Origin: a virus
Taxonomy: Duplodnaviria; Caudoviricetes
Virus record (IMG/VR): IMGVR_UViG_3300026549_000043
Coordinates: 32,001-96,000 of that record
Direction: 5' to 3' (one strand)
DNA: 64,000 nucleotides
Shown here: positions 2,306 to 57,360 of the stretch, piece after piece
How the letters are laid out: each line of letters begins with the position of its first letter
Position numbering within the stretch: the first letter of the stretch is position 1
Made by a program: the position numbers and the translations under genes
Notes under the pieces: generated by a model
Databases searched by the model: none
Told to the model about the DNA's origin: nothing
Seen by the model: the letters and a program-made list of their open reading frames with translations, nothing else

Positions 2306-5047
2306 ATGGAAAAAATTATTCAACAAAGTCTTTTTGGTGCAAATTTTGACATTATTTTAAATAATGATAAAACTGATAAGATAATAAAAAAATTAAAGAA
2401 ACCAAAAGATCTATCTGAAGTTAGTACAGATAAATTCTTGAAGTCTAAAAATATTTCTATTGGGGAGAAGATAAAAAGAGTTACTGAAGACGTCAACCGT
2501 ATCTTGGGTAATTATAAAAATGATACTATAGTAATTAAGTCTGAAGATGAATTAAAAAATTATATCGATAAGGCTATTTCTAATGGAGTTATTTCAGTCG
2601 ATACAGAAACAAATAATTCTTTAGACCCTTTAACATGTAAGATTATGGGTTTATGTATATATACTCCAGGTGAAAAGAACGCTTATGTACCAGTTAATCA
2701 TATTAATTTAAATACTAAAGAGAAATTACCAAATCAGGTAACTGAAGAAGAAATCAATCACCAGTTAACTAGATTATTAGAAAATAAAACAAAATGTATA
2801 TTTCATAATGGTAAATTTGATTACATGGTAATTTATTATACTTGTGGGGTTAAACTACCAATTGATTGGGATACGATGATAGGCTCACAGATCTTAAATG
2901 AAAATGAACCAGCCGGATTGAAATATCAATATAAGAATAAAATTAACCCGGATCAAGATAAATATTCAATCGAACACCTATTCCAGGGTATGGAATATGC
3001 AATTTTTGATCCAGAATTATTTGCATTATATGCAGCCACTGATGCCTATATGACTTATAAATTATATGAATATCAAAAGAAAGAATTTGAAAAGAATGGC
3101 AATGAAAGACTATATAATCTATTTCTTAATATTGAGATGCCTGTAGTAACGGTTACTGCAGAAATGGAATCTAGAGGAATCGCCGTAGATAAAGAATTTG
3201 CTAAAAGACTTAGTACAAAATTCCATAAAAAACTAGATAATTTAAATGAGGTTATTAGTAAAGAAATGGAAAAATATCAAGATACTATTAATGAATGGAG
3301 ATTGTCAGTCGAAGCCAATAGGCATGAAGTTAAAAATGGTAAAACTCAAAAATCTTTAAGTGAAAAATTATCAGACCCGGTAGAACTTACATCGGCCACT
3401 CAATTAGGTATTCTATTATATGATGTTTTAAGAGTATTAAAAGTTGGAAGCGATGGCAAGAAAACTACCGATGAAGCTACATTATTATCTATAAAAGATA
3501 CTTTGCCATTAGCTTCTCTAATCTTAAAAAAGAGGGAATACGAAAAATATTTAGGAACTTATATTGATGTGTTGCCTACATATTGTAACCCTAGAGATGG
3601 CCGAGTACATGCTCACTTTAATCAATTAGGTAGAGAAGATAGAAACGTAGTAACAGGTAGAATGTCAAGCTCTGATCCATCATTACAGGTTATCCCTGCT
3701 AGAGGTGATATTGTAACGGTTAGAATGATGTTTGTAGCTACAACTGAGTATCCCGAAATTAAACCAATTAATGACCATTATGAAGTACCAATAGAAAATG
3801 AAGTCCTATTAAAAAGCAATGAATATAAATGGTCTTCATACCTAGAACCAGGAGATATTTTAGAAAATGGTAATAAGGTGTCTAGAATTAATGTTAAAGA
3901 AAAATTAGTAGAAATTTATTATACTGGTAATAGCGAGGTACTTAAAACTCGTAGACGTTATAAACTGTGTGGTAATGACTACTCAGCTCAGGAAGTTAGA
4001 ATGTTTGCTCAGAACACACAAGATCCTTCAATGATTAATGTTTTTAAAGAAGGTAGAGACTTATATTCTGAGGTAGCTTCAATGGTTTACCATCTTCCTT
4101 ATTATGAATGTACTGAATTTAATGATAAGGGTGAATTTAATCTTGAAGGTAAACAAAGAAGAACGAAGTGTAAAAGTTTAATTCTTGGTCTTCAATATGG
4201 ACGTGGTATTAAATCAATCGCTGAACAAATTAAAGCTCATGATGGACCAGTTAATAAAGAAGATATTGCTGAAGCAAAGAAATTATCTGATGACTTCTTT
4301 ACTCACTACCCAAAGGCCAAGGAATGGATGGATAATAATAAGAAGAAGGCTCGTGAGGTTGGGTATGTAGAGGATTTATGGGGCAGACGTAGAAGATTAC
4401 CTGATGCTTCATTACCAAAATATGAATTTTCTCTATTAAATGAAAAAGAGTTATTTAATCCATTATTAAATACTCCAGTCAGAAAATTAGAAGTTGATAA
4501 AAAATTAATTAATAGATATACCGAATTGTTGGATAAAACTAAAAGTTTATCTGAAAGAGAATCTGTCATTAAATCAGCTAAAAAGGATAATCTTTCAATT
4601 AAAAGCAATTCAGGTTATATAGCTCAGGCTGAAAGGCAGGCCATCAATGCTCCAATTCAGGGTGGATCTGCCACAATGACAAAATTGGCTATGAGGAATA
4701 TGTATTATGACCAAGAATTAAAAGATTTAGATTTTCATTTATTAATTCCAGTTCATGATGAAATTATTGCTGAAGCTCCATTATGGAATATTGATAAAGC
4801 AGTTGATAGGATGGCTTACATTATGATTCACGCAGGTGAGCCTGAATGCGAAGTACAGATGAAATGTGATGGAGATTCATTCTATCGTTGGTATGAGGAT
4901 GTCTTTAAGGCCCATGTAAAGGAAGAGTTTGAAGAACATATAAAAAATGGCTTCAGCAAGGAAGAGGCAATTAAAATGGTTCAGGAAGTAAATTCTGAGT
5001 GTACCATCGAAGAAATAGAAGGGTATATCTCAGAATTAAACCTTTAG
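2306..5047 (+). CDS. polA: Family A DNA polymerase (3'-5' exonuclease + polymerase) with ~70-aa insert
   Basis: DTET (ExoI), HNGKFD, YAATD, TGRMSS, DYSAQE (motif A), K..ILGLQYG (motif B), VHDE (motif C); N-terminal QQSLF. Confidence 0.95.
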   Translation: MEKIIQQSLFGANFDIILNNDKTDKIIKKLKKPKDLSEVSTDKFLKSKNISIGEKIKRVTEDVNRILGNYKNDTIVIKSEDELKNYIDKAISNGVISVDTETNNSLDPLTCKIMGLCIYTPGEKNAYVPVNHINLNTKEKLPNQVTEEEINHQLTRLLENKTKCIFHNGKFDYMVIYYTCGVKLPIDWDTMIGSQILNENEPAGLKYQYKNKINPDQDKYSIEHLFQGMEYAIFDPELFALYAATDAYMTYKLYEYQKKEFEKNGNERLYNLFLNIEMPVVTVTAEMESRGIAVDKEFAKRLSTKFHKKLDNLNEVISKEMEKYQDTINEWRLSVEANRHEVKNGKTQKSLSEKLSDPVELTSATQLGILLYDVLRVLKVGSDGKKTTDEATLLSIKDTLPLASLILKKREYEKYLGTYIDVLPTYCNPRDGRVHAHFNQLGREDRNVVTGRMSSSDPSLQVIPARGDIVTVRMMFVATTEYPEIKPINDHYEVPIENEVLLKSNEYKWSSYLEPGDILENGNKVSRINVKEKLVEIYYTGNSEVLKTRRRYKLCGNDYSAQEVRMFAQNTQDPSMINVFKEGRDLYSEVASMVYHLPYYECTEFNDKGEFNLEGKQRRTKCKSLILGLQYGRGIKSIAEQIKAHDGPVNKEDIAEAKKLSDDFFTHYPKAKEWMDNNKKKAREVGYVEDLWGRRRRLPDASLPKYEFSLLNEKELFNPLLNTPVRKLEVDKKLINRYTELLDKTKSLSERESVIKSAKKDNLSIKSNSGYIAQAERQAINAPIQGGSATMTKLAMRNMYYDQELKDLDFHLLIPVHDEIIAEAPLWNIDKAVDRMAYIMIHAGEPECEVQMKCDGDSFYRWYEDVFKAHVKEEFEEHIKNGFSKEEAIKMVQEVNSECTIEEIEGYISELNL

Positions 5048-5124
5048 TTTACAGAGTGATTTAATTCTATTAATATATAATTATAAAAATATTTAAGTGT
5101 CCAAGGAGGTGAGTTTTTACAGTT

Positions 5125-5626
5125 ATGAACATCGTAGTATTTGGATGTGATAACTGTGGTTAGCAAAACCACGTTATGTAATCAGTTAGCTAACTTATTA
5201 AATGAAGATGTAGATTTTACTGCAGAAGTAGTTCATAGCTTAGGCCCTAATAAATCTGTTAAGGAAATGGTTGAATTCATGGAAGGTAATCTTACTCCAG
5301 TAAATTCAACTCATACAAAAATTTTTGATAGGTTCCCAGTTATAGAAGAAAGTATTTATGGTCCCTTACTAAGAGGTGAAAATAAATTTGCTGGAGTAAT
5401 AGTAAAGAATCTTTTAGATAGAGTAGATTTATTTGTTTATTGCTATCCAGGTTTATTTACTATCCTTAATTGGGGTGATAGAGAACAGATGCCTGGGGTT
5501 AAGGATAATGTTTTTGAAATTATTGATTCATATAATAGACTGGCTGTAAAATTAAAATCTAATGGATATAATGTTAAAGAATATAATTATAGATGTGATA
5601 ATTATAAGGAGTTATTAAATGATTAA
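5125..5626 (+). pseudogene. dNMP kinase-like P-loop protein interrupted by 4 extra nt in the Walker A motif
   Basis: ATG 5125 gives MNIVVFGCDNCG, then TAG C, then KTTL... in the +1 frame; IFDRFP kinase motif downstream. Confidence 0.7.
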
Positions 5627-5810
5627 AAAAATATCAAATGAAAATTCTATTATTTATTACTCTTTAAATAGATATAGAGATTATTTAAAGAATTTATTAG
5701 TTACTGGGAATGATGCTTTAGAATATACAGAAATATTAGATCTTTTAAAATCAACTGAAGAAGTTTTAGAAAAGTATAGAAAGTTAATCCAGGAAAAGGG
5801 TGAATATTAA
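5619..5810 (+). CDS. Hypothetical protein
   Basis: Overlaps kinase stop, RBS-like AGGAG upstream. Confidence 0.6.
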   Translation: MIKKISNENSIIYYSLNRYRDYLKNLLVTGNDALEYTEILDLLKSTEEVLEKYRKLIQEKGEY

Positions 5811-5811
5811 A

Positions 5812-6441
5812 ATGAATACTTCGGATATTAAGTTTAATGGTGAAATTAAATCATTTGACGAACTCTTTAAAGCTGCTAGAGAACAATTTTTATTATATGA
5901 AAAATTAGAAGGAATAGATGACTGGGAAAAATATGATTTCTCAATTGACTGTTCAGCAGACCAGATGAAGTTTAAAGATATGATCCAGATTAGATTCATT
6001 GAAGAATTAACTGAAGCGTCTATGGCCTTAGAAGATCCACCAGAACATTTCTGGGAAGAAATAGGCGATGCTTTAAATTTCTTCTTATCAGCCTATGTTA
6101 TGTTAGGTGTAGATTTTAAAAAATTACCTGATCCACAAAAGATTCTTACTAGACATGAATATGCTATACATAAAATAAGAATTATTCATCGTGACGAATA
6201 TTCTCTGAAGGTGTATCCTATTATTGAAGATGTGGGAAGCTTATGTAATTTATTAAAAAATAGGCCTTGGTCACAAAGTAATTTTTTAGTATCGATGACT
6301 GATTTTAATCAAAGACTTGAAAAATTATGGGTTGATTTCTGGGAATTATTTAATTATATGAGAGTTAGTCCAGAGGAAGTATTTGAAATGTTTTGGAAAA
6401 AATATCAAGTAAACATTCATAGAATAGAAACGGGGTATTAA
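5812..6441 (+). CDS. All-alpha NTP pyrophosphatase (dimeric dUTPase/dCTPase, MazG-like)
   Basis: FIEELTEA...EEIGDALNFF metal motifs; C-terminal K..VN..R..GY. Confidence 0.75.
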   Translation: MNTSDIKFNGEIKSFDELFKAAREQFLLYEKLEGIDDWEKYDFSIDCSADQMKFKDMIQIRFIEELTEASMALEDPPEHFWEEIGDALNFFLSAYVMLGVDFKKLPDPQKILTRHEYAIHKIRIIHRDEYSLKVYPIIEDVGSLCNLLKNRPWSQSNFLVSMTDFNQRLEKLWVDFWELFNYMRVSPEEVFEMFWKKYQVNIHRIETGY

Positions 6442-6442
6442 A

Positions 6443-7192
6443 ATGGCTAGAATATTTAAAACAATTTATGATGCGTTAGATGAAACAGCTAGAGACTTGA
6501 AGGTTAGAAGTATTACTACTGAATGTCAAAGCTATCAGGATAAAAAGCTTGAAGGTAAGGATAGATTTGTAAAAGAATTAATTGGTGTAAATTTTGTAAT
6601 TAACAAACCTACCTTGGATAGAGAAAAAGCCATTGAATATATGTTTAAAGACCCTGAAGAATCTAAAAAGATTATTAGGTATTGTGAACAGGAAATTAAG
6701 GATAGATGTTCAGGAGAGCCATTAAATCCAGGAAATTCTTATAAAATTAGAGCTGACCTTTGGTCAAAGTTTATTGAAGGTACAGGAAAGTTTAGTTATC
6801 AGTACGCTGAAAGGCTATGGACAAATAATCAGTTTAGAAATGTCATTGAATGTTTAAGAAATGATGCTGGTACAAGACAGGCAGTATTATCAATTTGGGA
6901 TCCCGAAAAAGATATGGATTTAAAGAAATTAGGTGGTGGAAATAGAATTCCATGTAGTCTTAATTATCAATTCTTAATAAGAAATGATAGATTACATTGT
7001 ATTTATTCACTTAGATCAAATGATTTCTTTGGACATCATGCCATAGATTTGTATTGTGCTTCAGGATTAATGGAATATGTAGTAAATGAATTAAAGGATA
7101 CATATCCAGATTTAAAGGTTGGTTCATTAACTTATTTATGTGGAAGTCTTCATTCATTTGCTTGGGATATCAACCGTTGGGTTTTGTTTTAG
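6443..7192 (+). CDS. Thymidylate-synthase-fold enzyme, candidate dCMP (hydroxy)methylase
   Basis: TRQA, RIPC, YQFLIR, RSND, SLH; Asp (AIDLY) at the position of the ThyA specificity Asn. Confidence 0.8.
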   Translation: MARIFKTIYDALDETARDLKVRSITTECQSYQDKKLEGKDRFVKELIGVNFVINKPTLDREKAIEYMFKDPEESKKIIRYCEQEIKDRCSGEPLNPGNSYKIRADLWSKFIEGTGKFSYQYAERLWTNNQFRNVIECLRNDAGTRQAVLSIWDPEKDMDLKKLGGGNRIPCSLNYQFLIRNDRLHCIYSLRSNDFFGHHAIDLYCASGLMEYVVNELKDTYPDLKVGSLTYLCGSLHSFAWDINRWVLF

Positions 7193-7981
7193 ATGATTTA
7201 TTTAGAGTATAAAGATTTTGATAATTTATACCATGATTTTTCTAGATTGTTAATTAATGATTTAGAAAAATATAAAGATGATTCCTTTATCATTGGGGCT
7301 ACAGTTTATTTGAACAATGTAGTAATTAGTACACCTTCATGTGATTGCCATCTTGACATGGCAGACTTTAATTATACTAAAGTAAAGTGGACTACATTAG
7401 TAAATAAATATATTAACAAAGAAAGTTATTTTGATTTAAAAGATAGACTAGTAACTTCTACGGCTAAAACATTAACCTTCAACTTTAATATTCATATCGG
7501 AAGATCTACCGATAAAGATAAAACTAAAAACCGAGACTCATGCTTAGTAGCTTTAGTTTTTAGTAGACATGGTAATTCTGGGCCTTGGACTAATGTTAGT
7601 ATTTATTACCGAGTAACAGAAATTTTTAAAAAATTTGCTATAGATTTAATTCTATTCAATAGAATGTTCAATGACTTACCAAATCTAGAAATAAAAGAAT
7701 ATTTATTTTATATCCCGCAACCATTTTATAGTACTTTTATTTTATCTGAACTAATGGATAAATTATTTGATATTAAGGAATTTGATCAACCTGATAATTT
7801 TATTTGTTATAAGATTAATAAATTTTATGATAAATATTATGGCGAAAATGCCGTAGAATCAAATTATCATGCTATAGCTAGAAAACAAAAAATGAAGAAA
7901 GAAAACATTGTCAGAGATCCTATCCCAATAGAAAGTCTAAAGATCTTTGATGATAAATATTTAGAAGATACCTTGTGGTAA
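7193..7981 (+). CDS. Divergent second TS-fold protein
   Basis: SCL..LVF...YYRVTE..KKFAIDL parallels PC..YQF...RSND...AIDL of the upstream gene. Confidence 0.5.
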   Translation: MIYLEYKDFDNLYHDFSRLLINDLEKYKDDSFIIGATVYLNNVVISTPSCDCHLDMADFNYTKVKWTTLVNKYINKESYFDLKDRLVTSTAKTLTFNFNIHIGRSTDKDKTKNRDSCLVALVFSRHGNSGPWTNVSIYYRVTEIFKKFAIDLILFNRMFNDLPNLEIKEYLFYIPQPFYSTFILSELMDKLFDIKEFDQPDNFICYKINKFYDKYYGENAVESNYHAIARKQKMKKENIVRDPIPIESLKIFDDKYLEDTLW

Positions 7982-8034
7982 AGTTTACAATAGAGTTAAA
8001 ATAATTTATAATATTGTGTATAAGGAGAAAGAAA

Positions 8035-8478
8035 ATGAATAAAGAATACCCAACCTTAAAAGTTAAATTATTATCTAATAATGCAAAATTACCGACTCGT
8101 GGAACTCCAGGTTCATCAGGTCTTGATGTATATTCACCTATTGATTTTAGTATTCCACCAAGAGGTGATTATTTAGTAGCTTTAGATTTAGCCTTTGATA
8201 TTCCCTTCGGATGGGATTTATCAGTAATGAACAAATCAGGTATATCAACAAAAAAACATTTGGATAAGGGTGCTGAACTTATCGATAGTGATTATACTGG
8301 TAATTGCCATATCCACCTATTTAATCATTCTGATAATGAAATTCACTTTAATAAAGGTGATAAACTAGCTCAATTAGTAATGAGAGAAGTTTGGATGGGT
8401 GAGATTGAAGAGGTTAAAGAAATTAGAAAAGATACTCTTAGAGGGTCGTTAGGGTTCGGGAGCACCGGTGATAAGTAA
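8035..8478 (+). CDS. dut: Trimeric dUTPase
   Basis: SSGLD, KSG, IDSDYTG, AQLV, RG..GFGSTG motifs. Confidence 0.95.
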   Translation: MNKEYPTLKVKLLSNNAKLPTRGTPGSSGLDVYSPIDFSIPPRGDYLVALDLAFDIPFGWDLSVMNKSGISTKKHLDKGAELIDSDYTGNCHIHLFNHSDNEIHFNKGDKLAQLVMREVWMGEIEEVKEIRKDTLRGSLGFGSTGDK

Positions 8479-8927
8479 TGGATAAGAAGCAATCTTATTA
8501 TATCGAATTAGCTAAGATAGCTTCTAAACAAAGTAAGGATCCACGTACTAAGGTTGGTTCTTGTATAACCAAGGATGGAAAGATTTTATCTCTAGGCTGG
8601 AATGGGCCTCCTAGGAAATTAAATGACTCTCTAGTACCATTTGATTGCAGAGATAAGACTAAACCATTAAAAGAACAAAAATATCCATATATTCTTCACT
8701 CAGAGGTCAATTCAATCTTAAACTATGCGGGTCAATTGAATGATCTGGTGGGTTCATCTTTGTATGTTACCGTATTCCCTTGTCATAATTGTGCTTTACA
8801 AATTATTCAGGCTGGAATTAAAGAGGTTTATTATCTAGAAGATTATGGTGGAGATTCTGAGAGTGACAAGATGTCTAAGTTCTTATTTGATCAATGTGGT
8901 GTAAGTTATAAAAAATTGGAGAATTAA
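8478..8927 (+). CDS. dCMP deaminase
   Basis: HSE and PCHNC zinc motifs; SKDP.TKVG. Confidence 0.92.
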   Translation: MDKKQSYYIELAKIASKQSKDPRTKVGSCITKDGKILSLGWNGPPRKLNDSLVPFDCRDKTKPLKEQKYPYILHSEVNSILNYAGQLNDLVGSSLYVTVFPCHNCALQIIQAGIKEVYYLEDYGGDSESDKMSKFLFDQCGVSYKKLEN

Positions 8928-8930
8928 TAT

Positions 8931-10058
8931 ATGATTGTAAAAACTGAAGAATTTAAAGAAGCGTGTCAGACAATTTTATTGGCATTAGATACAAAAGAAG
9001 TGTCTTTATATAATGAGGCCTTAGAATTAATCTCTAGTGGTAGTACCTTAAATTTAAATGTTACTAATAGGCAATATTATGTAACAGTAAAATTTAATCT
9101 CACTTCTCCAGTTAATTTCAAAGCAGTAGTTAAGGCTAAAACTTTCTTATCATTGGTAAGTAAAATTACTACTGAGTATATTGAATTATTAGTAGATGAT
9201 AGAGTCTTAAAGGTTAAGGCTAATGGAGAATATACTTTCCCATTAGTATTTAATAATTCCACTATGTTAGAATTACCTAAGATTAACACTGGAGTAGTAA
9301 CTAATTCTTTTTCAATTAATAGTAATATCCTTTTAAGTATACTTAATAATAATAGTAAAGAATTAATTCGTGGGGCTGAGGTATTAAAAAGTAGTAACAG
9401 TAAACAGGTACAGTCCTATTATTATGTAGATGAATTAGGGGCTATTACTTATACTACTGGAGCCTGTGTAAATTCATTCACCTTACCTTCTAGTTTAAAA
9501 ATTTTATTAGATGAAAAATCTGTTAGATTATTTAGGTTATTTAAAAATAATACTACAGTAGATTTTGAAATGAGTCAGGTAGCTTTAAATGATACTCTTA
9601 CCCAGACTGTCTTGAAGTTTAGTAATTCAATGATAGAATTAATTACTTTAATGCCAGATTCATCTATGATATCTTCTGTCCCAGCCTTAACTATTAGAGA
9701 GATGGCTAATAAGAATTACCCTTATGAAGTAGTATTAAGTAAGGATAGTTTGTTAGAGATTTTAAATAGACTAAATATCTTTAATACTGACTCTAGGTTA
9801 TTAGTCCAGGTTAGTATTTCTAATGATACTTTGACTATTTCGGGGTTAAATGGTGAATTTACTGAAACTCTTAAAACTTCAAGTGGAACATCGGTTGAGG
9901 AACCATACTCATTCTATTTAATTTTAAAGAATTTAAAATTAATTCTTGATGGATATGTAGAACAATATATTACAATGTGTTTTGGTGATAATAAGGCTAT
10001 AGCTTTTAAAAAGAATGGTGTAGTAGATATTATTCCTGAGCCTAGGGTAGTTAATTAA
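8931..10058 (+). CDS. dnaN: Sliding clamp, DNA polymerase III beta-like
   Basis: 375 aa with DnaN-like pattern; loader subunits present elsewhere in window. Confidence 0.65.
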   Translation: MIVKTEEFKEACQTILLALDTKEVSLYNEALELISSGSTLNLNVTNRQYYVTVKFNLTSPVNFKAVVKAKTFLSLVSKITTEYIELLVDDRVLKVKANGEYTFPLVFNNSTMLELPKINTGVVTNSFSINSNILLSILNNNSKELIRGAEVLKSSNSKQVQSYYYVDELGAITYTTGACVNSFTLPSSLKILLDEKSVRLFRLFKNNTTVDFEMSQVALNDTLTQTVLKFSNSMIELITLMPDSSMISSVPALTIREMANKNYPYEVVLSKDSLLEILNRLNIFNTDSRLLVQVSISNDTLTISGLNGEFTETLKTSSGTSVEEPYSFYLILKNLKLILDGYVEQYITMCFGDNKAIAFKKNGVVDIIPEPRVVN

Positions 10059-25379: not shown

Positions 25380-26093
25380 ATGGTAAAAGACATATTGGTT
25401 TCAGACCTTTTAAATGAAAGGGCTATGGAGTGGGATGTTAAGAAGGATTCAGAATTAACTAATACTATCCTTAGAGACTTGGTTGATACTCTAGAAGCTA
25501 ACCCAGATAGATTATATTTATGTGCTAATGAAATCGGATATACTGAGAGAGCTTTTATTTTAAAGTTTAGTGATGATTGAAAAGCTTTCATGAACCCAAT
25601 CTTCCAGGTAAAGGATAATCTAAAATTAGTTAGAGAATATAATCCTATAGATAAAAAACAATATATTATTCCTAGATATACCGATGTGACTATATGCTAT
25701 CAAAATTCCATGGGTAAAGTTGAAGCTGTAAAATTTAATGATTCAGCATCAGCTATAGTGTCTCATGCAATGGATGTTTTGGAAGGGTTACAAACTTCTG
25801 ATTATGGATTAGAAGTCGTTGAGGAATTTGATACCGCTTCGCCAGAAGAACAGGCCCAGGTATTGAATGAATATTTAAAATCTTTAAATAAATTTAAAGA
25901 AGATTTGGATTCTGATTTAAGTAATTCTGATGAGGAAACTAAAAAAGAATGGGATGGCTTTAAATTTATGAAAGCCGTTTCGGATGGAAAGGTAGAATTA
26001 TATAAGCCAGAAAATAAATCTCCAATAATAAATAGAAAACAAAGAAGATTTTTTGAAAAATTGGCTAAAAAATTTAGAAGGAGAAAAAGATAA
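25380..26093 (+). CDS. Peptide deformylase-fold protein with degenerate active site (1 in-frame TGA)
   Basis: DLVDTL...LCANEIG...FMNP...IPRY..VT..Y...G......F...A..VSHAMDVLEG follows the PDF pattern; ORFs 25380 and 25590 are in frame across TGA 25578. Confidence 0.7.
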
Positions 26094-30469: not shown

Positions 30470-33400
30470 ATGAGGAAAAAAAGCTTAAGTACTAATATTT
30501 ACAAGATAAAAGAATTATTATCAAAATATATCAAAGAGGGTGATTATATTATTGAAGACAATTCAAGGTATAATTCCATTAATGATTTATTATCTTCTTG
30601 GTATATTGAGTGTATAATAGATGAAGAATTAACTCCTAAGGGAGAAAAAGTAATATATGGATTACCAGCGGTAAAAGGCAATGAAGATAGTATTAAATAA
30701 AGATTATGGTGGATTTTCTGTTTCAGATTATGTGAGAGATGCTTTAGATCTTGAAGATAATTATTCTGTTGACCGTAAAGATCCAAGATTAATAAAATTA
30801 ATCGAAGATTTTCCTGATAGATGTGATGGTACTTTTGCTACTTTAAGAATAGTAGAAATACCAGACGAAGCTACCGATTATTATATTATGGATTATGATG
30901 GCATAGAAACTATTATCTATGTAATAAATGGTAAGCTTTATTTTAAATAAGGCTAGGTGATTAAAATATTTTTAACTAATTCATTAAAATGGTGTTTAAT
31001 AATTTTGATTAGTATTATTTTATGTTTTATCTCTATAGGGGTAATAATAACTTTATTCCACCCGGAGCCAATAAAGGATGAAATAGAAGAAGCATTAGAA
31101 GAAATTACTAGAAAGAAGAGGAAAAAGAAATGAGTTACTACAGCAAAAGATACTTAAAAGAAAAATGGGAACCTTTAAAGTGGGATATGGAAGAAATTCT
31201 TTTAAACAATGATGATGATGACCGCATTGATGAAGAAAAGGTTAAGAGAGTTAGAAATGCAATGAACTACTACATTGATGCTATTAAGAAGGAGATAAAT
31301 AAGTGAGACTAATTGATGGAGATAATTTAAAGGATGAAATTCTGGGGATAATCTTCGAAAGAGGGCAGGAATCTAGTAAATATGAAAATATGATAGAAAT
31401 TGGAGCCATGAGGTATTCTGATGTTGAATATGAAAATGGTATTGATGATGGCCTAGAAATCTGTTACAGTAAGATAGATTCAGAACCAACTATTAAGGCT
31501 ATATCTCTTAATTGGATAAATAATTATAAAAATACTTCAGGGCCAATAACTAAATATATTTTAAATCGAATGATTAAAGACTGGGATAGTATTCATGGTT
31601 AAATGCATTGAATGTCCATATTTAAAAACTAAAATTAATAAAATTGGCATAGTATATACAAATTGTGTTTATTCAAATGGAAAAAAGACTTTATATATTT
31701 ATAATATAGATACTAATAAAGAAGCTCTGCCTAAAAATTGTCCTTTATTAAAAAATATTAGTGATAGTGGGGTAATATAAATGAGGCTAATCGATTCTGA
31801 TAAACTAATAGTTGAAGTAGTTCACAGCGGTAATATTGTCTGTCTACCGCATATTTCATTAGAACAATTAAATACTGCACCAGTAATAAAGGCAATCCCT
31901 ATCGAGTGGATAAAAGATGTTTGGTTAAAAAGGCTTTAGAAGAAGTTACTTCTAAGAAGAAAAGGAAGGGGAAATAATTTCTCCTTCTTTTAGTTTATTT
32001 ACTGTTATTTATAGATTATAATAATAATGTAAATAAAGAGGTAAGAGAAAATGAAAAATAGACAGTGGGATGAATTAGATACAATAGAGACTATTTGTGA
32101 TGATGTGTATAATGCTTCTTTTATAAAGAAAATTGAAGAAGTGAGTAAGTGGTGTATAATTATTGGTTTAATTTTACTCTTCATATATTTGTATTTATAA
32201 GGTTTGGTTATTAGGAGAAAGAAAATGAGTAAATCTGTAATGATAATTGATACACCTAGAGATTGTTGTGATTGTCCTTTTGGTACTATGGCTTTTGGTA
32301 AAAGTGTTTGTTTACTAGATGAAGGTAATGGAATTGAATGTCCATTGAAACCATACAAAGATTTCGTTCCTATTGAGTGGATTAAATCAAAGATAGATGT
32401 AATACTTGGTAGCTACCCAGATGGAAATGAAGAAACTGAAATTCTTTGCAAACTGTTATATGACTGGGAGAAAGAAAATGAGGCTAATTGACGCAGATAG
32501 ATTACTAAAACCAAGCTTTACAGATATGTTTGATAAGCCAGTGAAAATGGATATGTTCAGTCGATATGCTATCGAAAGCCAACCAACAGTAAAAGCAATT
32601 CCTATTGAGTGGTTAATAAACAAGTGTAATGAAGCAGACAATATGGGAATGGGTATTGATGATTGGTCTGTGAAAGATTGCTATCAATTAGTGTTAGAAG
32701 CTTGGGAGGAAGAAAATGAGAAGTAGACAGTGGAATAAGTTAACAACTGAAAGATGTAAGCAGTTTTGTAATGAATGGTGTTGCCCTTGTAATGATGGTT
32801 CTACTGGTTGCTATGCTAATGACTTCTATGAGATGCTTTGTGATAGCTCTACTACTGCTCATATCTTTAGAGGTGAAGAAGATCTCTTTGATAGATTACA
32901 AGAAGAGAGTTATAACCGAATGGTTGAAAGTTATGATGATCCTGAGATCTATGAAAAGTTCTGTGAAAAGTTTGTAAAAGAATTGGGAGAGTAATGAATG
33001 GCTGCAATAGATTATGGAGTCCTAATAATTAAAGATGGCAAGGTAATAAATACTGATCTATTTCCGGTATTTACTATTGATAAATATACAATTGACTTTT
33101 ATAAGCATTCATTAACTATTTATAAAAATAATGAACTTGTAGAAAACTATTTCTTTAGTGATAAATACTCTTATTATTTAAATACAGTAGTGGGTAAAAT
33201 AAAAGTTCGAACTTTATCTCGTAAGAATCTCAGCAGATTTATTACTAGAATAAATGGGTATACTATTATATTCGGATATGGAATTGATCCCAATAAGAAC
33301 AAAGGATATCAAAAGCATATAATGAACGATTATGGGTTTGATAGGAGAGAGAAACGTATTATTTCTAAGTATTTATGGGAGAAAGAAAATGAGACTAATT

Positions 33401-39630: not shown

Positions 39631-39919
39631 TTATTTTGGAGGTTACTTAATGTTAACTAGAGAAGAATTTAAGAGAAGTGTAGAGGCATATGAAGATTTT
39701 GAGAATTATTTGGATAAACTGGCCGAGCTTCAAATAAATATATGGGAGAATGATTCGGTTGGTTGGTTTAGAGATCAGTATATGACTTTATTATGTAAAG
39801 CTATGGAACAGGAGTTAGATAATATATATTTAAATGATCTAGAAGAATTCGTATACAATAATTTTTCTTCAGAAAATATTGATACAGTATATGATAAATT
39901 GGTAGGAGAAAACAAATAA
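39623..39919 (+). CDS. Hypothetical protein
   Basis: Open frame. Confidence 0.55.
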   Translation: MNNYFGGYLMLTREEFKRSVEAYEDFENYLDKLAELQINIWENDSVGWFRDQYMTLLCKAMEQELDNIYLNDLEEFVYNNFSSENIDTVYDKLVGENK

Positions 39920-40578
39920 TGGCGGGATTATTTATTGTTTTGGAAGGTGGAGAGGGCTGTGGTAAATCAACCATAGCTGATTATCTCTTTAAAAGATTAT
40001 CTTCTAATGGTTATAGAGTATTATTAACTAGAGAACCAGGTGGAGTAAAAATTTCAGAACAAATTCGTAATATTATTTTAGATAATAATAACAAAGAAAT
40101 GGATCCAATGACTGAGGCTTTATTATATGCTGCTTCAAGGAGGCAACATTTAATTGAAAAGGTTATTCCAGAATTAGAATCTAATGGCATTGTCATTTGT
40201 GACCGTTTCATTGACTCTTCATTAGCCTATCAAGGTTATGCTCGTGGCTTAGGTATTAATAATATTATGAAACTAAATTCTTTTGCTATACAGGACCCAA
40301 AATCATCAAATAAATATTTCCCTGATTTAAGTATATTTTTAGATATAGACCCAATAAAAGGACTAGATCGAGTTAAATCTCGTGGAGAAAAATTAAACCG
40401 CTTAGATAAAGAAAAATTAGGTTTTCATTATTTAGTTAGAGAAGGTTATAATAAAATTATTCAGACTAATAACTATATAATAAAAATAGATGCATCAGAA
40501 GAATTATCTGTTGTAGAAGAAAAGGTTTATAATAAAGTTTTAGAATTAATTACTAGTAAAGGATTACAAATAAATTAA
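39919..40578 (+). CDS. tmk: Thymidylate kinase
   Basis: EGGEGCGKST, TREPGG, CDRFIDSSLAYQG. Confidence 0.95.
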   Translation: MAGLFIVLEGGEGCGKSTIADYLFKRLSSNGYRVLLTREPGGVKISEQIRNIILDNNNKEMDPMTEALLYAASRRQHLIEKVIPELESNGIVICDRFIDSSLAYQGYARGLGINNIMKLNSFAIQDPKSSNKYFPDLSIFLDIDPIKGLDRVKSRGEKLNRLDKEKLGFHYLVREGYNKIIQTNNYIIKIDASEELSVVEEKVYNKVLELITSKGLQIN

Positions 40579-54217: not shown

Positions 54218-54856
54218 ATGAAGGTTTATTTAGCTGGGTCTATTTTTTATTTTGGAGATGAACTTCGTAATAAAGAATGGGCTAAAAGAATTAGAGACCA
54301 ATTTCCTGGGATTGATCTTTATTCACCAATAGAAAATACTGATATTAATGGAGTCGAGGGTAAACTTAAATTCGCTGGATCTAGATTAATCGCTGATGGT
54401 GATAATCAAAGATTAGACCATACTGATGTATTAGTAGCATGTATTGATGGAGATGTTATTCCAGCAGGTACTAGTGCTGAAATTGGGGTTATGAGAGAAA
54501 AGATTAGACGTGGAGACCATAAGTATATTATTGGTATTTGTACGGATAATAGGGAATGTTCTAGAACTCATAGCTTAGAAAAAGATAATGGTGCGGCGTC
54601 AGAAATTTGTGAACAGCAATACTCATATCAAAATTTATATGTAGTTGGTTTAATTAAAGAAAGTGGAATCTTAGTAAATAATATTGAAGATGCCATTAAA
54701 TTTATGAAAAAAATAGCCCCAGAATATTCTCAGGAATTTGTTGATGATGTCTGGAATAATAAGGAAATCTTAAGATACTTGAGCGAGGATTCTTCTTTCT
54801 GGGAAGAAGATGAATTGGTTAAAGAATACTCAAACAGTCATAAAGGAGAGATCTAA
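54218..54856 (+). CDS. Nucleoside 2-deoxyribosyltransferase / NMP hydrolase family
   Basis: VYLAGS.F, YSP, D..RLD, GTSAEIG, NLYVVG. Confidence 0.85.
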   Translation: MKVYLAGSIFYFGDELRNKEWAKRIRDQFPGIDLYSPIENTDINGVEGKLKFAGSRLIADGDNQRLDHTDVLVACIDGDVIPAGTSAEIGVMREKIRRGDHKYIIGICTDNRECSRTHSLEKDNGAASEICEQQYSYQNLYVVGLIKESGILVNNIEDAIKFMKKIAPEYSQEFVDDVWNNKEILRYLSEDSSFWEEDELVKEYSNSHKGEI

Positions 54857-54859
54857 TTT

Positions 54860-56107
54860 ATGGATAAATTAATATATAGAATTGAGGACTCACCAAAAAG
54901 TATTAAAGAATATTTATTATATGGTGCTCAGCAATGTTTATCAATTCTTACTGCTACAATTTTAATTTCTACTATTTGTGGCACTAATGTTTCAGCTGGT
55001 TTTGTTGGTGCCGGCGTAGCTACTATTACTTTCTTAATTCTAACGGGATTCAAAGCCCCGTTATTCTTTAGTAATAGTGGATCTACTTGTGCAGCCGTTA
55101 TTACTGCCTTGGCAATTGGACATGACTATACAGGGGTTATTCTAGGCGGTATTACAGTATGTTTAATGAATACTGTAGCTGCTTTAATTACTAAAAGAGT
55201 CGGGTCTGATTGGGTAAATAAATTATTACCTCCTGTAGTATCGGGAAATATTGTAACCATTATTGGTTTAAATCTAGCTGGATTTTGTGCTACTTATGTT
55301 GGGATGGGTAATGAAGGAGAATTAATCAGAGTCTTTATTGCCTTCTGTACTATGTTAATTACTGTTTTAACTATGCATTATTCCAAGGGTATGCTAAAAA
55401 CTCTACCATTTTTAATTGGAGCTCTAGGCGGTTATTTGTTATCATTAATTTTTGGGTTAGTAGATTTTTCAGTCTTTAATAATTTAAAATTAATTACCTT
55501 GCCTGATTTTGCTTTTCTGCATGTAGATTTTAAGGAGTTTGACTGGTTAACTTTACCTACTATTATAATAACCTTTGGAGCAGTTAACCTAGCTAACCTA
55601 GGTGAACATATTTCTGATATATTAGCCGTTAGTAGTATTGTAGATGAAGATTTAACTAAATCCGTAGGGTTACATAAAACTTTCTTCGGTGATGGTGTGG
55701 CTGATTTAGTCGGTACCCTTATTGGTGGTCAGCCGACTACTACATATTCAGAATCTTTATCTACTATTGCTGTATCTAAAGTAGCATCCACTAAAGTTAT
55801 TTTAGTAGCAGCTTTAATGACTATCTTATTAGGATTCTTTGGTCCATTACAGGTATTTATTTTAAGTATTCCTAATTGTGTATTCGGTGGGATAGCTTTA
55901 GTAGCTTATGGAATGATTGCTGCTAGCGGAATTAAAATCTTAAATACAGTTAATTATAATCACCAAAAGAATGTCATAATTACAGCTGCTATGCTTACCA
56001 TTGGTGTTTCAGGTGTAGCGTTTAATATAGGACAATTTACTCTAGGTACTATTGCTTTATCAATGATATCTGGGTTAATTATAAATTTATTACTTAAAGA
56101 TGTATAG
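54860..56107 (+). CDS. NCS2 (UraA-like) nucleobase permease
   Basis: Many TM segments; PPVVSG, EHISD, GDG, TTYSE motifs. Confidence 0.9.
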   Translation: MDKLIYRIEDSPKSIKEYLLYGAQQCLSILTATILISTICGTNVSAGFVGAGVATITFLILTGFKAPLFFSNSGSTCAAVITALAIGHDYTGVILGGITVCLMNTVAALITKRVGSDWVNKLLPPVVSGNIVTIIGLNLAGFCATYVGMGNEGELIRVFIAFCTMLITVLTMHYSKGMLKTLPFLIGALGGYLLSLIFGLVDFSVFNNLKLITLPDFAFLHVDFKEFDWLTLPTIIITFGAVNLANLGEHISDILAVSSIVDEDLTKSVGLHKTFFGDGVADLVGTLIGGQPTTTYSESLSTIAVSKVASTKVILVAALMTILLGFFGPLQVFILSIPNCVFGGIALVAYGMIAASGIKILNTVNYNHQKNVIITAAMLTIGVSGVAFNIGQFTLGTIALSMISGLIINLLLKDV

Positions 56108-56130
56108 TATTTTTAAGAAAAGAGGTAAAC

Positions 56131-57360
56131 ATGAAGAAAATTATTTCTAAACTTTTGGTAGCCCTTTTATTGGTTACCTCATTTACTGGATGTAGTGGAG
56201 AAAAAACTCCTGAACCTGAGAACCAGCCTAAGAAGATTGGTATTATTTTAGTTGGTGATGAAAATGAGGGTTACACATATGCCCATATGGTTGGAATTAA
56301 GGAAGCCATGAAGGCTGCAAGTTTAGAAGATAGCCAGGTAATTTGGAAATATTCAGTTGGTGAAACTCAGGACTGTTACGACCAGGCAGTAGACCTTGTT
56401 GAACAGGGTTGTACAGCCGTATTCTCTAACTCTTACGGCCATCAGCAGTTCATGCAGCAGGCTGCTTCAGAGTATCCAGATGTACAGTTCGTAGCCGCAA
56501 CTGGTGATACAGCTGCTCTCAGCGGACTGAGCAATTTCTCAAACGCATTCACAAAAGTTTATGAATCACGTTACGTATCAGGCATCGTTGCCGGTATGAA
56601 GCTGGCTGAACTTGAAGCTGCCGGACAGATTCCTGCAGAAAGCTACAAGGATGGCAAGGTTCTTATTGGTTATATTGGTGCCTATCCTTATGCAGAAGTT
56701 GTTTCAGGCTTCACAGCATTCTTCTTAGGCGTTAAGTCAGTATTCGAAAACGTTACAATGGAAGTCATCTACACCAACTCATGGTTTGATATCGTAGCCG
56801 AGGGTGAAACAGCTAATACCATGATGGCTGACCACTGTGTTATCATTGGCCAGCACGCTGACTCAACAGGTGCTCCAGCTGCAATCGAAGTAGCACAGAA
56901 GAATGGAACAGTTGCTTATTCAGTTGGTTATAATGTTGATATGTTAGAAGTAGCACCAAACGCTGCCTTAACTTCAGCTACAAATAACTGGGGTGTTTAC
57001 TACACATATGCATTCAAGCAGGTTGTAGAAGGCAAGAAGATCGATACAAACTGGGCTCAGGGTTATGAATCTGACGCAGTTGCCATCACAAAGTTAGGTC
57101 CTAACTGTGCTCCTGGCACACAGGAAGCTGTTGACAAGGCAATCGCTGAAATCAAGGCTGGCACATTACATGTATTCGATACAAGCACATGGACAGTAAA
57201 CGGCGAACACTTATCAGAATTAAAGATCGACTTAACAGGCGACTTTGATACAGATGATGCAGAAGACAAGAACGCTATCTACAATGGCTACTTCCATGAA
57301 TCAGAATTCAGAAGCGCTCCATCATTCAGCGTAATCATCGACGGAATATTCGAAAAGTAA
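56131..57360 (+). CDS. BMP-family nucleoside-binding lipoprotein
   Basis: Lipobox FTGC; GYTYAH, YESRYVSG, SWFD, QHADS, NWG.YY. Confidence 0.9.
   Translation: MKKIISKLLVALLLVTSFTGCSGEKTPEPENQPKKIGIILVGDENEGYTYAHMVGIKEAMKAASLEDSQVIWKYSVGETQDCYDQAVDLVEQGCTAVFSNSYGHQQFMQQAASEYPDVQFVAATGDTAALSGLSNFSNAFTKVYESRYVSGIVAGMKLAELEAAGQIPAESYKDGKVLIGYIGAYPYAEVVSGFTAFFLGVKSVFENVTMEVIYTNSWFDIVAEGETANTMMADHCVIIGQHADSTGAPAAIEVAQKNGTVAYSVGYNVDMLEVAPNAALTSATNNWGVYYTYAFKQVVEGKKIDTNWAQGYESDAVAITKLGPNCAPGTQEAVDKAIAEIKAGTLHVFDTSTWTVNGEHLSELKIDLTGDFDTDDAEDKNAIYNGYFHESEFRSAPSFSVIIDGIFEK

Follow-up and report, generated by a model that had tools for sequence, protein, structure and literature searches.

Phage T4 is, by analogy, the closest mechanistic model for the genes described here. 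It encodes an all-alpha pyrophosphatase (gp56), a thymidylate synthase (TS)-fold enzyme with an RSND motif and a specificity-determining Asp (gp42, a deoxycytidine monophosphate (dCMP) hydroxymethylase), a dedicated deoxynucleoside monophosphate (dNMP) kinase (gp1) and a separate dCMP deaminase (cd). The same activities are predicted for genes in a 64,000-nucleotide stretch (positions 32,001 to 96,000) of the IMG/VR virus record IMGVR_UViG_3300026549_000043, referred to here as the window, which has in addition a TS-fold protein, TS5, that T4 lacks. TS5 is encoded in a cassette of five co-oriented + strand genes (5125-7981), comprising a Tmk-like kinase, a 63-amino-acid (aa) open reading frame (ORF), an all-alpha pyrophosphatase, the short TS homologue TS4, and TS5 (Table 1). 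A preliminary description of this DNA had listed a kinase, an all-alpha dNTPase, a TS-fold enzyme and a TS-fold paralog, along with a separate trimeric dUTPase and thymidylate kinase (Tmk); all six are present, the first four on the + strand at the coordinates it gave. The gene set most likely modifies cytosine before its entry into phage DNA. The recognizable part of the cassette is an already known signature, and TS5 is the new part.

Evidence that links such genes to modified cytosine came from MetaGPA surveys of metaviromes (PMC8670742; bioRxiv 10.1101/2024.12.05.627091). According to these reports, PF00303 domains with Asp at position 177 (ThyA numbering) co-localize with PRA-PH, dCMP deaminase and PolA specifically on cytosine-modified contigs. 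Asp at this position, in established work cited in PMC8670742 and PMC13326640, switches TS from deoxyuridine monophosphate (dUMP) to dCMP. Five of seven Asp-type TS homologues tested made 5-methyl-dCMP alone, and linked deaminases were reported to yield thymidine triphosphate (dTTP) from 5-methyl-deoxycytidine triphosphate (5-methyl-dCTP) with no need for a true TS (PMC8670742; 10.1101/2024.12.05.627091). The window resembles the MetaGPA neighbourhoods in having the same domains beside PolA, Asp at position 177 and a residue other than His at position 147. By analogy with T4 and these surveys (PMC8670742; 10.1101/2024.12.05.627091), its kinase, pyrophosphatase and Asp-type TS, with a deaminase and PolA nearby, match the known signature of cytosine-modified phage DNA. 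One difference is that the surveys are based on Pfam domains; no Pfam model exists for TS5, which goes unmentioned in the parts of those papers drawn on here.

Xanthomonas phage Xp12 offers a second comparison. It has a cytosine-specific TS (RSSD, Asp177) beside a deaminase, and no second TS. The Xp12 enzyme, at 289 aa, is full length and, unlike TS4, retains the C-terminal region of ThyA; dihydrofolate reductase (DHFR) is encoded alongside. A scan of 50 kb of Xp12 found neither TS5 nor a pyrophosphatase or kinase of the cassette type.

TS5 belongs to the TS superfamily despite strong divergence

TS5 has no match in Pfam or NCBIfam, and its PHROG is labelled ‘unknown function’; because of this, the family is invisible to domain-based surveys. 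BLASTP detects no similarity between TS4 and TS5. Evidence for the fold of TS5 came from an AlphaFold2 model built on a 28-sequence alignment (predicted local distance difference test score, pLDDT, 88.9; predicted template modelling score, pTM, 0.88). The leading Foldseek matches of this model in the PDB are TS-fold chains throughout, with Z from 14.3 to 9.3. In VIA-align, Z is 14.3 against the dCMP hydroxylase AfhB of phage HY126 (183 residues, root-mean-square deviation 3.5), falling to 12.7 for MilA and to about 10 for both ThyA and T4 gp42. Matches in BFVD are headed by uncharacterized phage proteins of the TS5 family itself, including one from Pseudomonas phage PMBT14, followed by thymidylate synthases and gp42 homologues or dCMP hydroxymethylases.

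Additional evidence came from profile comparisons. An exhaustive profile search (E <= 1e-3) gathered 493 representative clusters at 50% identity, and a 68-member alignment of the family (13-57% identity) keeps Tyr61, Lys65, Leu69, Tyr73, Phe98, Cys117, Arg140, Glu143 and Asp151. Searched against the PDB, the 68-member profile matches AfhB-type TS chains only (E 1e-4), and hhalign aligns the TS5 and TS4 families with E 0.004, pairing Cys117 with Cys171, Arg140 with Arg191, Glu143 with Asp194 and Asp151 with Asp202. These gains appear only with the 68-member profile; a narrow TS5 profile finds no TS chain in the PDB, and its hhalign comparison with TS4 is not significant. The spacing from Arg to Asp in TS5 is 11 residues, the same as in TS, within a motif that reads R-x-S/T-E where TS has R-S-x-D. 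Fold and catalytic register are thus established computationally: TS5 is a second, highly diverged TS-superfamily member, and the model (Z 14.3 to AfhB) together with the profile register bears out the earlier suggestion of a divergent TS-fold paralog.

The nucleophilic Cys is conserved in TS5, as are the Arg that binds phosphate, the cytosine-specifying Asp and, where ThyA has Asp169, an acidic residue; from this pattern of conservation we infer an active enzyme that handles a cytosine nucleotide. We give a probability of about 0.55 to the reading that TS5 is an independent catalytic enzyme, which would work as its own dimer in the TS4 pathway with a cytosine nucleotide as substrate. That TS5 is instead a non-catalytic relic or a nucleotide-binding regulator, with TS4 alone doing the chemistry, is very unlikely. 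Such a role would fit its faster evolution (39-89% identity, against 51-95% for TS4 in the same contig sets), the missing Pfam TS match, the loss of several phosphate-binding arginines and the Tyr found at the Glu143 position in gp47 of Mycobacterium phage Muddy. It would leave the near-invariance of the active-site Cys117, Arg140 and Asp151 over about 490 clusters, including both copies where TS5 is duplicated in tandem, as something not expected of a pseudo-enzyme.

AfhB (PDB 9iqu/9iqc) and RB69 gp48 share with TS5 a compact TS fold, and AfhB is the best structural match of TS5. We suggest by analogy that a compact fold acting on dCMP is common to AfhB and TS5, the substrate of TS5 being a prediction. 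The two proteins are only 10-11% identical. Flavin-dependent 5-hydroxy-dCMP synthases carry an Asp169-to-Asn signature (PMC13326640); unlike this Asn signature of AfhB and RB69 gp48, TS5 has Glu or Asp at the position (Glu143 in the window), and TS4 of the window has Asp194. AfhB-type enzymes need O2. An AfhB-like, O2-dependent hydroxylation by TS5 is unlikely because the phage encodes an anaerobic ribonucleotide reductase (nrdD) and relatives infect Clostridium.

The neighbouring enzyme TS4 is probably directed to cytosine

Sequence comparisons support a cytosine-directed role for TS4. It is the sole PF00303 match in the whole 139.9-kb record, and the closest PDB sequences are the CMP hydroxymethylase MilA (PDB 5b6d; 3.2e-8) and T4 dCMP hydroxymethylase (4.1e-8), with ThyA entries following from 5e-4 and E. 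coli ThyA at about 8e-3. MilA is likewise cytosine-specific with Asp, and is the second-best fold match of TS5; it differs in having a ribonucleotide substrate, a role in antibiotic biosynthesis, Asp at the ThyA Leu143 position and a length of about 320 aa. On T4 gp42, phmmer aligns Cys171 of TS4 with Cys148, RSND 191-194 with 168-171 and Asp202 with Asp179, in agreement with the preliminary description, which had read RSND and an Asp at the dUMP-specifying Asn position of this protein. In the same alignment, Trp107, Tyr121 and Arg168 fall on Trp82, Tyr96 and Asp145, the last being the Leu143 position of ThyA. The Pro-Cys motif (RIPC171) and R191-S192, 20 residues further on, are both invariant in the TS4 family.

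The position of Asn177 in ThyA is occupied by Asp in 117 of the 118 TS4 homologues compared, all of which are at least 51% identical. At the positions of His147 and Leu143, 115 homologues have Ser and 117 have Arg, respectively. Nine of the 118 read RSSN, the published signature of 5-hydroxy-dCMP synthases. The preliminary description had compared the gene set to T4 gp1/gp56/gp42, and this parallel is supported: among proteins of solved structure, MilA and gp42 are closest to TS4 in sequence, nearly all homologues have the Asp, and the domain neighbourhood is a known one.

The protein also departs from T4 gp42. TS4 shares RSND and the Asp at the T4 Asp179 position with T4-type hydroxymethylases and lacks their acidic residue at the Leu143/T4 Asp145 position, where it has Arg168. 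TS4 ends 12 residues past His237 of its His-x-Phe motif, so the ThyA C-terminal region is absent. In ThyA, the His-x-Tyr motif is followed by about 55 further residues, a C-terminal segment that closes over the folate. The best NCBIfam model for TS4 is the short archaeal type TIGR03283, with a score far under the model cut-off. A hydroxymethyl product is weakly favoured over methyl, because TS4 shares RSND with gp42 and has no C-terminal lid, and because DHFR was not found in the record.

TS5 and TS4 travel together in diverse phages

Linkage was examined in 96 loci: 14 first loci (12 from IMG/VR, Clostridium perfringens phage P21 and a human-gut phage record), Mycobacterium phage Muddy, and 81 further IMG/VR loci, which are 80 kept from the 507 found by a scan for the R[AS]SE[VI]TKRL subfamily, plus one. 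Three single-protein locus scans gave no locus in two cases and a single locus in the third. A TS4-type gene adjoins TS5 in 94 of the 96 loci, a count that overstates independence in that many of them are near-identical gut phages from one sample. In tblastn searches with the window proteins, each of the 14 first loci has TS4 and TS5 side by side, and kinase, pyrophosphatase, TS5 and TS4 occur together in most. The order is TS4-TS5 in the clade of the window and TS5-TS4 elsewhere among these loci, and four of them have two copies of TS5. In the 81 further loci, TS4 adjoins TS5 in 79, and 70 have the arrangement pyrophosphatase-TS5-TS5-TS4, with three TS-fold proteins in a row and all conserved residues kept in both TS5 copies. 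The range of hosts and of identities (down to 23%) shows that the TS5-TS4 association is old.

Cultured phages also carry TS5: C. perfringens phages and Muddy by sequence, and Pseudomonas phage PMBT14 by fold match only. Muddy has the same gene order (L023:1602-4813), with gp49 annotated as ‘thymidylate kinase’, gp48 as ‘dUTPase’, gp47 as hypothetical and gp46 as ‘thymidylate synthase’, followed by gp45. Muddy gp47 is a divergent TS5 (profile score 31 bits) that keeps the Cys and the Arg-x10-Asp spacing. The N-terminal sequence of gp45 looks deaminase-like by eye. No description of a TS paralogue like TS5 was found in the literature searched, which covered TS paralogues and DNA modification in Muddy, C. 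perfringens phages and PMBT14.

This linkage raises the possibility that TS4 and TS5 form an obligate heterodimer, in which TS5 completes or regulates the TS4 site, or Arg145 of TS4 completes that of TS5. TS is an obligate dimer whose sites borrow Arg126' and Arg127' from the partner, and the constant adjacency of the two genes in either order, often abutting or overlapping, is what a heterodimer would lead one to expect. TS4 keeps one partner arginine (Arg145), of which TS5 has no conserved equivalent, and the Asp169-equivalent is free to vary in TS4 while TS5 keeps Glu or Asp there. However, both proteins have the full Cys/Arg/Asp set, no TS5-TS4 fusion was found among the long members of the TS5 family (their tails are of low complexity, with no TS domain), and the tandem, intact TS5 copies of the gut loci suggest TS5/TS5' dimers instead. 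We regard an obligate heterodimer as less likely, and prefer TS5 as its own dimer.

The kinase gene is interrupted and the pyrophosphatase is conserved

The cassette kinase gene is predicted to encode a compact Tmk-like dNMP kinase that is interrupted in this assembly. DNA alignment with two relatives (L003 and L005) places a 4-nucleotide insertion between the Walker A Gly and Lys codons. In relatives, the Walker A motif is uninterrupted (G[CM]DN[STA]GK[ST]T) and the kinase is intact in every one seen; the same is true throughout the family, whose members, in more than 100 clusters, are about 165-180 aa long. A model of a 70%-identical intact relative (pLDDT 90.8) has the Tmk fold over its full length, with Z 14.0-14.7 to thymidylate kinases. 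Unlike T4 gp1, then, the window kinase is Tmk-like. Assembly error, recent knock-out and recoding are candidate explanations for the interruption. Repair by reading TGA as Trp is ruled out, since the stop is TAG and is accompanied by a change of frame. The 63-aa ORF that follows, and that overlaps the genes on either side, is kept only in two close relatives by tblastn.

The pyrophosphatase sequence contains EExxE (68-72) and EExxD (86-90) motifs of the MazG type. Its own PF08761 score lies exactly at the Pfam cut-off, and a more distant cassette orthologue matches the same family at 2e-12. The gene is co-conserved with TS5 and TS4 in related loci, and its proposed role is that of a dCTPase supplying dCMP.

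A proposed pathway and its alternatives

We propose that the five genes form an early-expressed cassette that would modify cytosine nucleotides ahead of replication. The pyrophosphatase would convert dCTP or deoxycytidine diphosphate (dCDP) to dCMP; TS4 would add a one-carbon group, likelier hydroxymethyl than methyl, to C5 of dCMP; and phosphorylation by the Tmk-like kinase would then ready the modified dNMP for incorporation into DNA instead of C. In the window, where the kinase is interrupted, this step may rely on Tmk or on host kinases. For TS5, two roles appear about equally likely. It may make a parallel, second product, for example 5-methyl-dCMP that a neighbouring deaminase would turn into thymidylate; this route is suggested because the cassette-bearing phages examined lack ThyA and ThyX. 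Alternatively, it may convert the TS4 product further. One such conversion would yield a new hypermodified cytosine nucleotide, for instance if 5-hydroxymethyl-dCMP were re-activated via a Cys-C6 adduct and an exocyclic methylene, and another nucleophile installed. We consider a new hypermodified nucleotide doubtful.

A different possibility is that the whole cassette is an alternative thymidylate pathway and that the virion DNA has no modified base: dCMP would become 5-methyl-dCMP, a deaminase would carry this to deoxythymidine monophosphate (dTMP) or dTTP, and the Tmk-like kinase would phosphorylate it. No PF00303 match other than the cassette's and no ThyX was found in five cassette-bearing genomes (the record containing the window, P21, Muddy and two IMG/VR genomes rated 100% complete), so that, unlike T4, the window phage has no td-type thymidylate synthase. 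This absence, a genome of 70% A+T, the structural proximity of the cassette kinase to Tmk, and the report that phage deaminases linked to Asp-type TS convert 5-methyl-dCTP to dTTP (10.1101/2024.12.05.627091) all accord with a thymidylate route. However, a canonical Tmk and a trimeric dUTPase are encoded by the phage in any case, so the presence of another kinase and pyrophosphatase speaks for a second nucleotide. Such neighbourhoods were also reported on contigs with modified cytosines (10.1101/2024.12.05.627091), several cassette loci have no deaminase next to them, and the need for two or three TS-fold proteins would be left unexplained. We therefore hold a pathway devoted to thymidylate to be unlikely, and continue to favour cytosine modification with TS5 as a separate enzyme in it.

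Several observations weigh against this preferred reading, in addition to the redundancy of the loci noted above. The modified base, the TS4 product and the activity of TS5 are all things that we infer. The published rule for methyl versus hydroxymethyl transfer, a hydrophobic versus an acidic residue at the Leu143 position (PMC13326640), gives no call for TS4, which has Arg there, and the known Xp12 methylase has Asn. The ThyA Asp169-equivalent of TS4 (residue 194, bases 7022-7024) varies among the 118 homologues between Asp (70), Ser (36), Asn (9) and Ala (2); this is odd for a folate enzyme, all other catalytic residues being kept in the TS4 clade. TS5 has no conserved equivalents of ThyA Arg21 and Arg126/127, as mapped by sequence and secondary structure, and its phosphate site is therefore expected to differ from that of ThyA; Arg18 of TS5 is present in part of the family only, and Lys92 is not conserved. 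The dedicated dNMP kinase is not intact in the window, its Walker A being split by the insertion, and no cassette-type kinase lies within 4 kb of the TS5 loci in the gut subfamily. Finally, only one clear GT2 glycosyltransferase was seen, far off in the late region.

The clear GT2 and one weak match lie outside the window (L021:5767-6750 and L021:13790-14449; genome 117766-118749 and 125789-126448), and no GT1 glycosyltransferase was found in the record. Neighbours of the late-region GT2 include BspA-like leucine-rich repeat proteins, CHAP-domain proteins and a papain-family (C1) peptidase. The enzyme could glycosylate DNA or something else entirely.

Genomic setting of the cassette

The record is 139,874 bp long, with an estimated completeness of 83% (CheckV), and derives from an uncultured gut or rumen phage. 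Its G+C content is 30%, every gene annotated here is on the + strand, and no DNA-level relatives were found in the phage collection searched. The cassette sits within a replication module with the order DnaB-like helicase, primase, PolA, cassette, trimeric dUTPase, dCMP deaminase, beta clamp, PD-(D/E)XK nuclease, HD protein and clamp loader. The deaminase is a candidate source of dUMP or, by analogy with the activities reported in bioRxiv 10.1101/2024.12.05.627091, of dTMP or dTTP from a 5-methylcytosine nucleotide.

Two promoter-like hexamer sites occupy the only two intergenic gaps, and the number of matches in the region is not above that of shuffled sequence; the sites would fit a five-gene unit ending at the 7984-8012 gap. 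The ORFs of 5000-9000 are the same under translation table 4, and the replication and nucleotide genes, including those of the cassette, have no in-frame TGA. TGA is recoded in other genes of the phage, and its absence from the cassette thus fits early expression. A phage-encoded peptide deformylase (window 25380-26093) is read with one TGA as Trp. A salvage island of raised G+C (window 54218-57360) encodes a nucleoside 2-deoxyribosyltransferase-family protein (PF05014), a xanthine/uracil permease and a PnrA/Bmp nucleoside-binding lipoprotein. PF05014 presumably also takes in MilB, the partner of MilA.

Table 1. Positions of the cassette and associated features in the window
Feature	Position	Strand	Details	Basis
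Promoter-like site	5048..5076	+	TTTACA-17-TAATAT; polA-kinase intergenic gap	Consensus match only
Kinase, N-terminal fragment	5125..5163	+	MNIVVFGCDNCG then TAG; 12-codon frame from ATG; first half of Walker A	
4-nucleotide insertion	5161..5164	+	TAGC between Walker A Gly and Lys codons; creates stop and frameshift	DNA alignment with relatives L003 and L005
Compact Tmk-like dNMP kinase, body	5141..5626	+	161 aa as ORF; family DRFP motif kept	phrog_761 ‘thymidylate kinase’, 1.6e-6
Small ORF	5619..5810	+	63 aa; overlaps kinase and pyrophosphatase genes	tblastn matches in L003 and L005; sub-threshold PF21017 (PHA01746-like)
All-alpha NTP pyrophosphatase	5800..6441	+	MazG/dimeric-dUTPase type	PF08761, 22.9 bits, exactly at Pfam cut-off; PF01503; phrog_12184, 1.6e-16
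TS4, short TS-family enzyme	6443..7192	+	Cys171; Arg168 (ThyA Leu143 position); RSND 191-194; Asp202 (ThyA Asn177 position)	PF00303, 35.6 bits, cut-off 24.3
TS5, TS-superfamily protein	7193..7981	+	Cys117, Arg140, Glu143, Asp151, YxxxKW (61-66); start codon abuts TS4 stop	Model and profile
Promoter-like site	7984..8012	+	Best in region (11/12 matches); 32-nucleotide gap upstream of dUTPase gene	
Trimeric dUTPase	8014..8478	+		PF00692, 8e-30
dCMP deaminase-family protein	8478..8927	+		PF00383, 6.8e-20
Canonical thymidylate kinase	39919..40578	+	Distinct from cassette kinase	PF02223, 8e-50

Implications

The catalytic residues of TS5 are those of an enzyme that modifies pyrimidines at C5. Its occurrence in laboratory-cultivable phages, among them Muddy and the C. 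perfringens phages, makes its role directly testable. The protein could account for some Asp-type TS homologues that yield no product when expressed alone. Modifications of phage DNA determine its susceptibility to restriction enzymes and CRISPR nucleases, and they have yielded enzymes for epigenetic sequencing. If TS5 does carry out a hypermodification, a new hypermodified cytosine would be present in many phages of the gut and rumen, of Clostridium and of actinobacteria.

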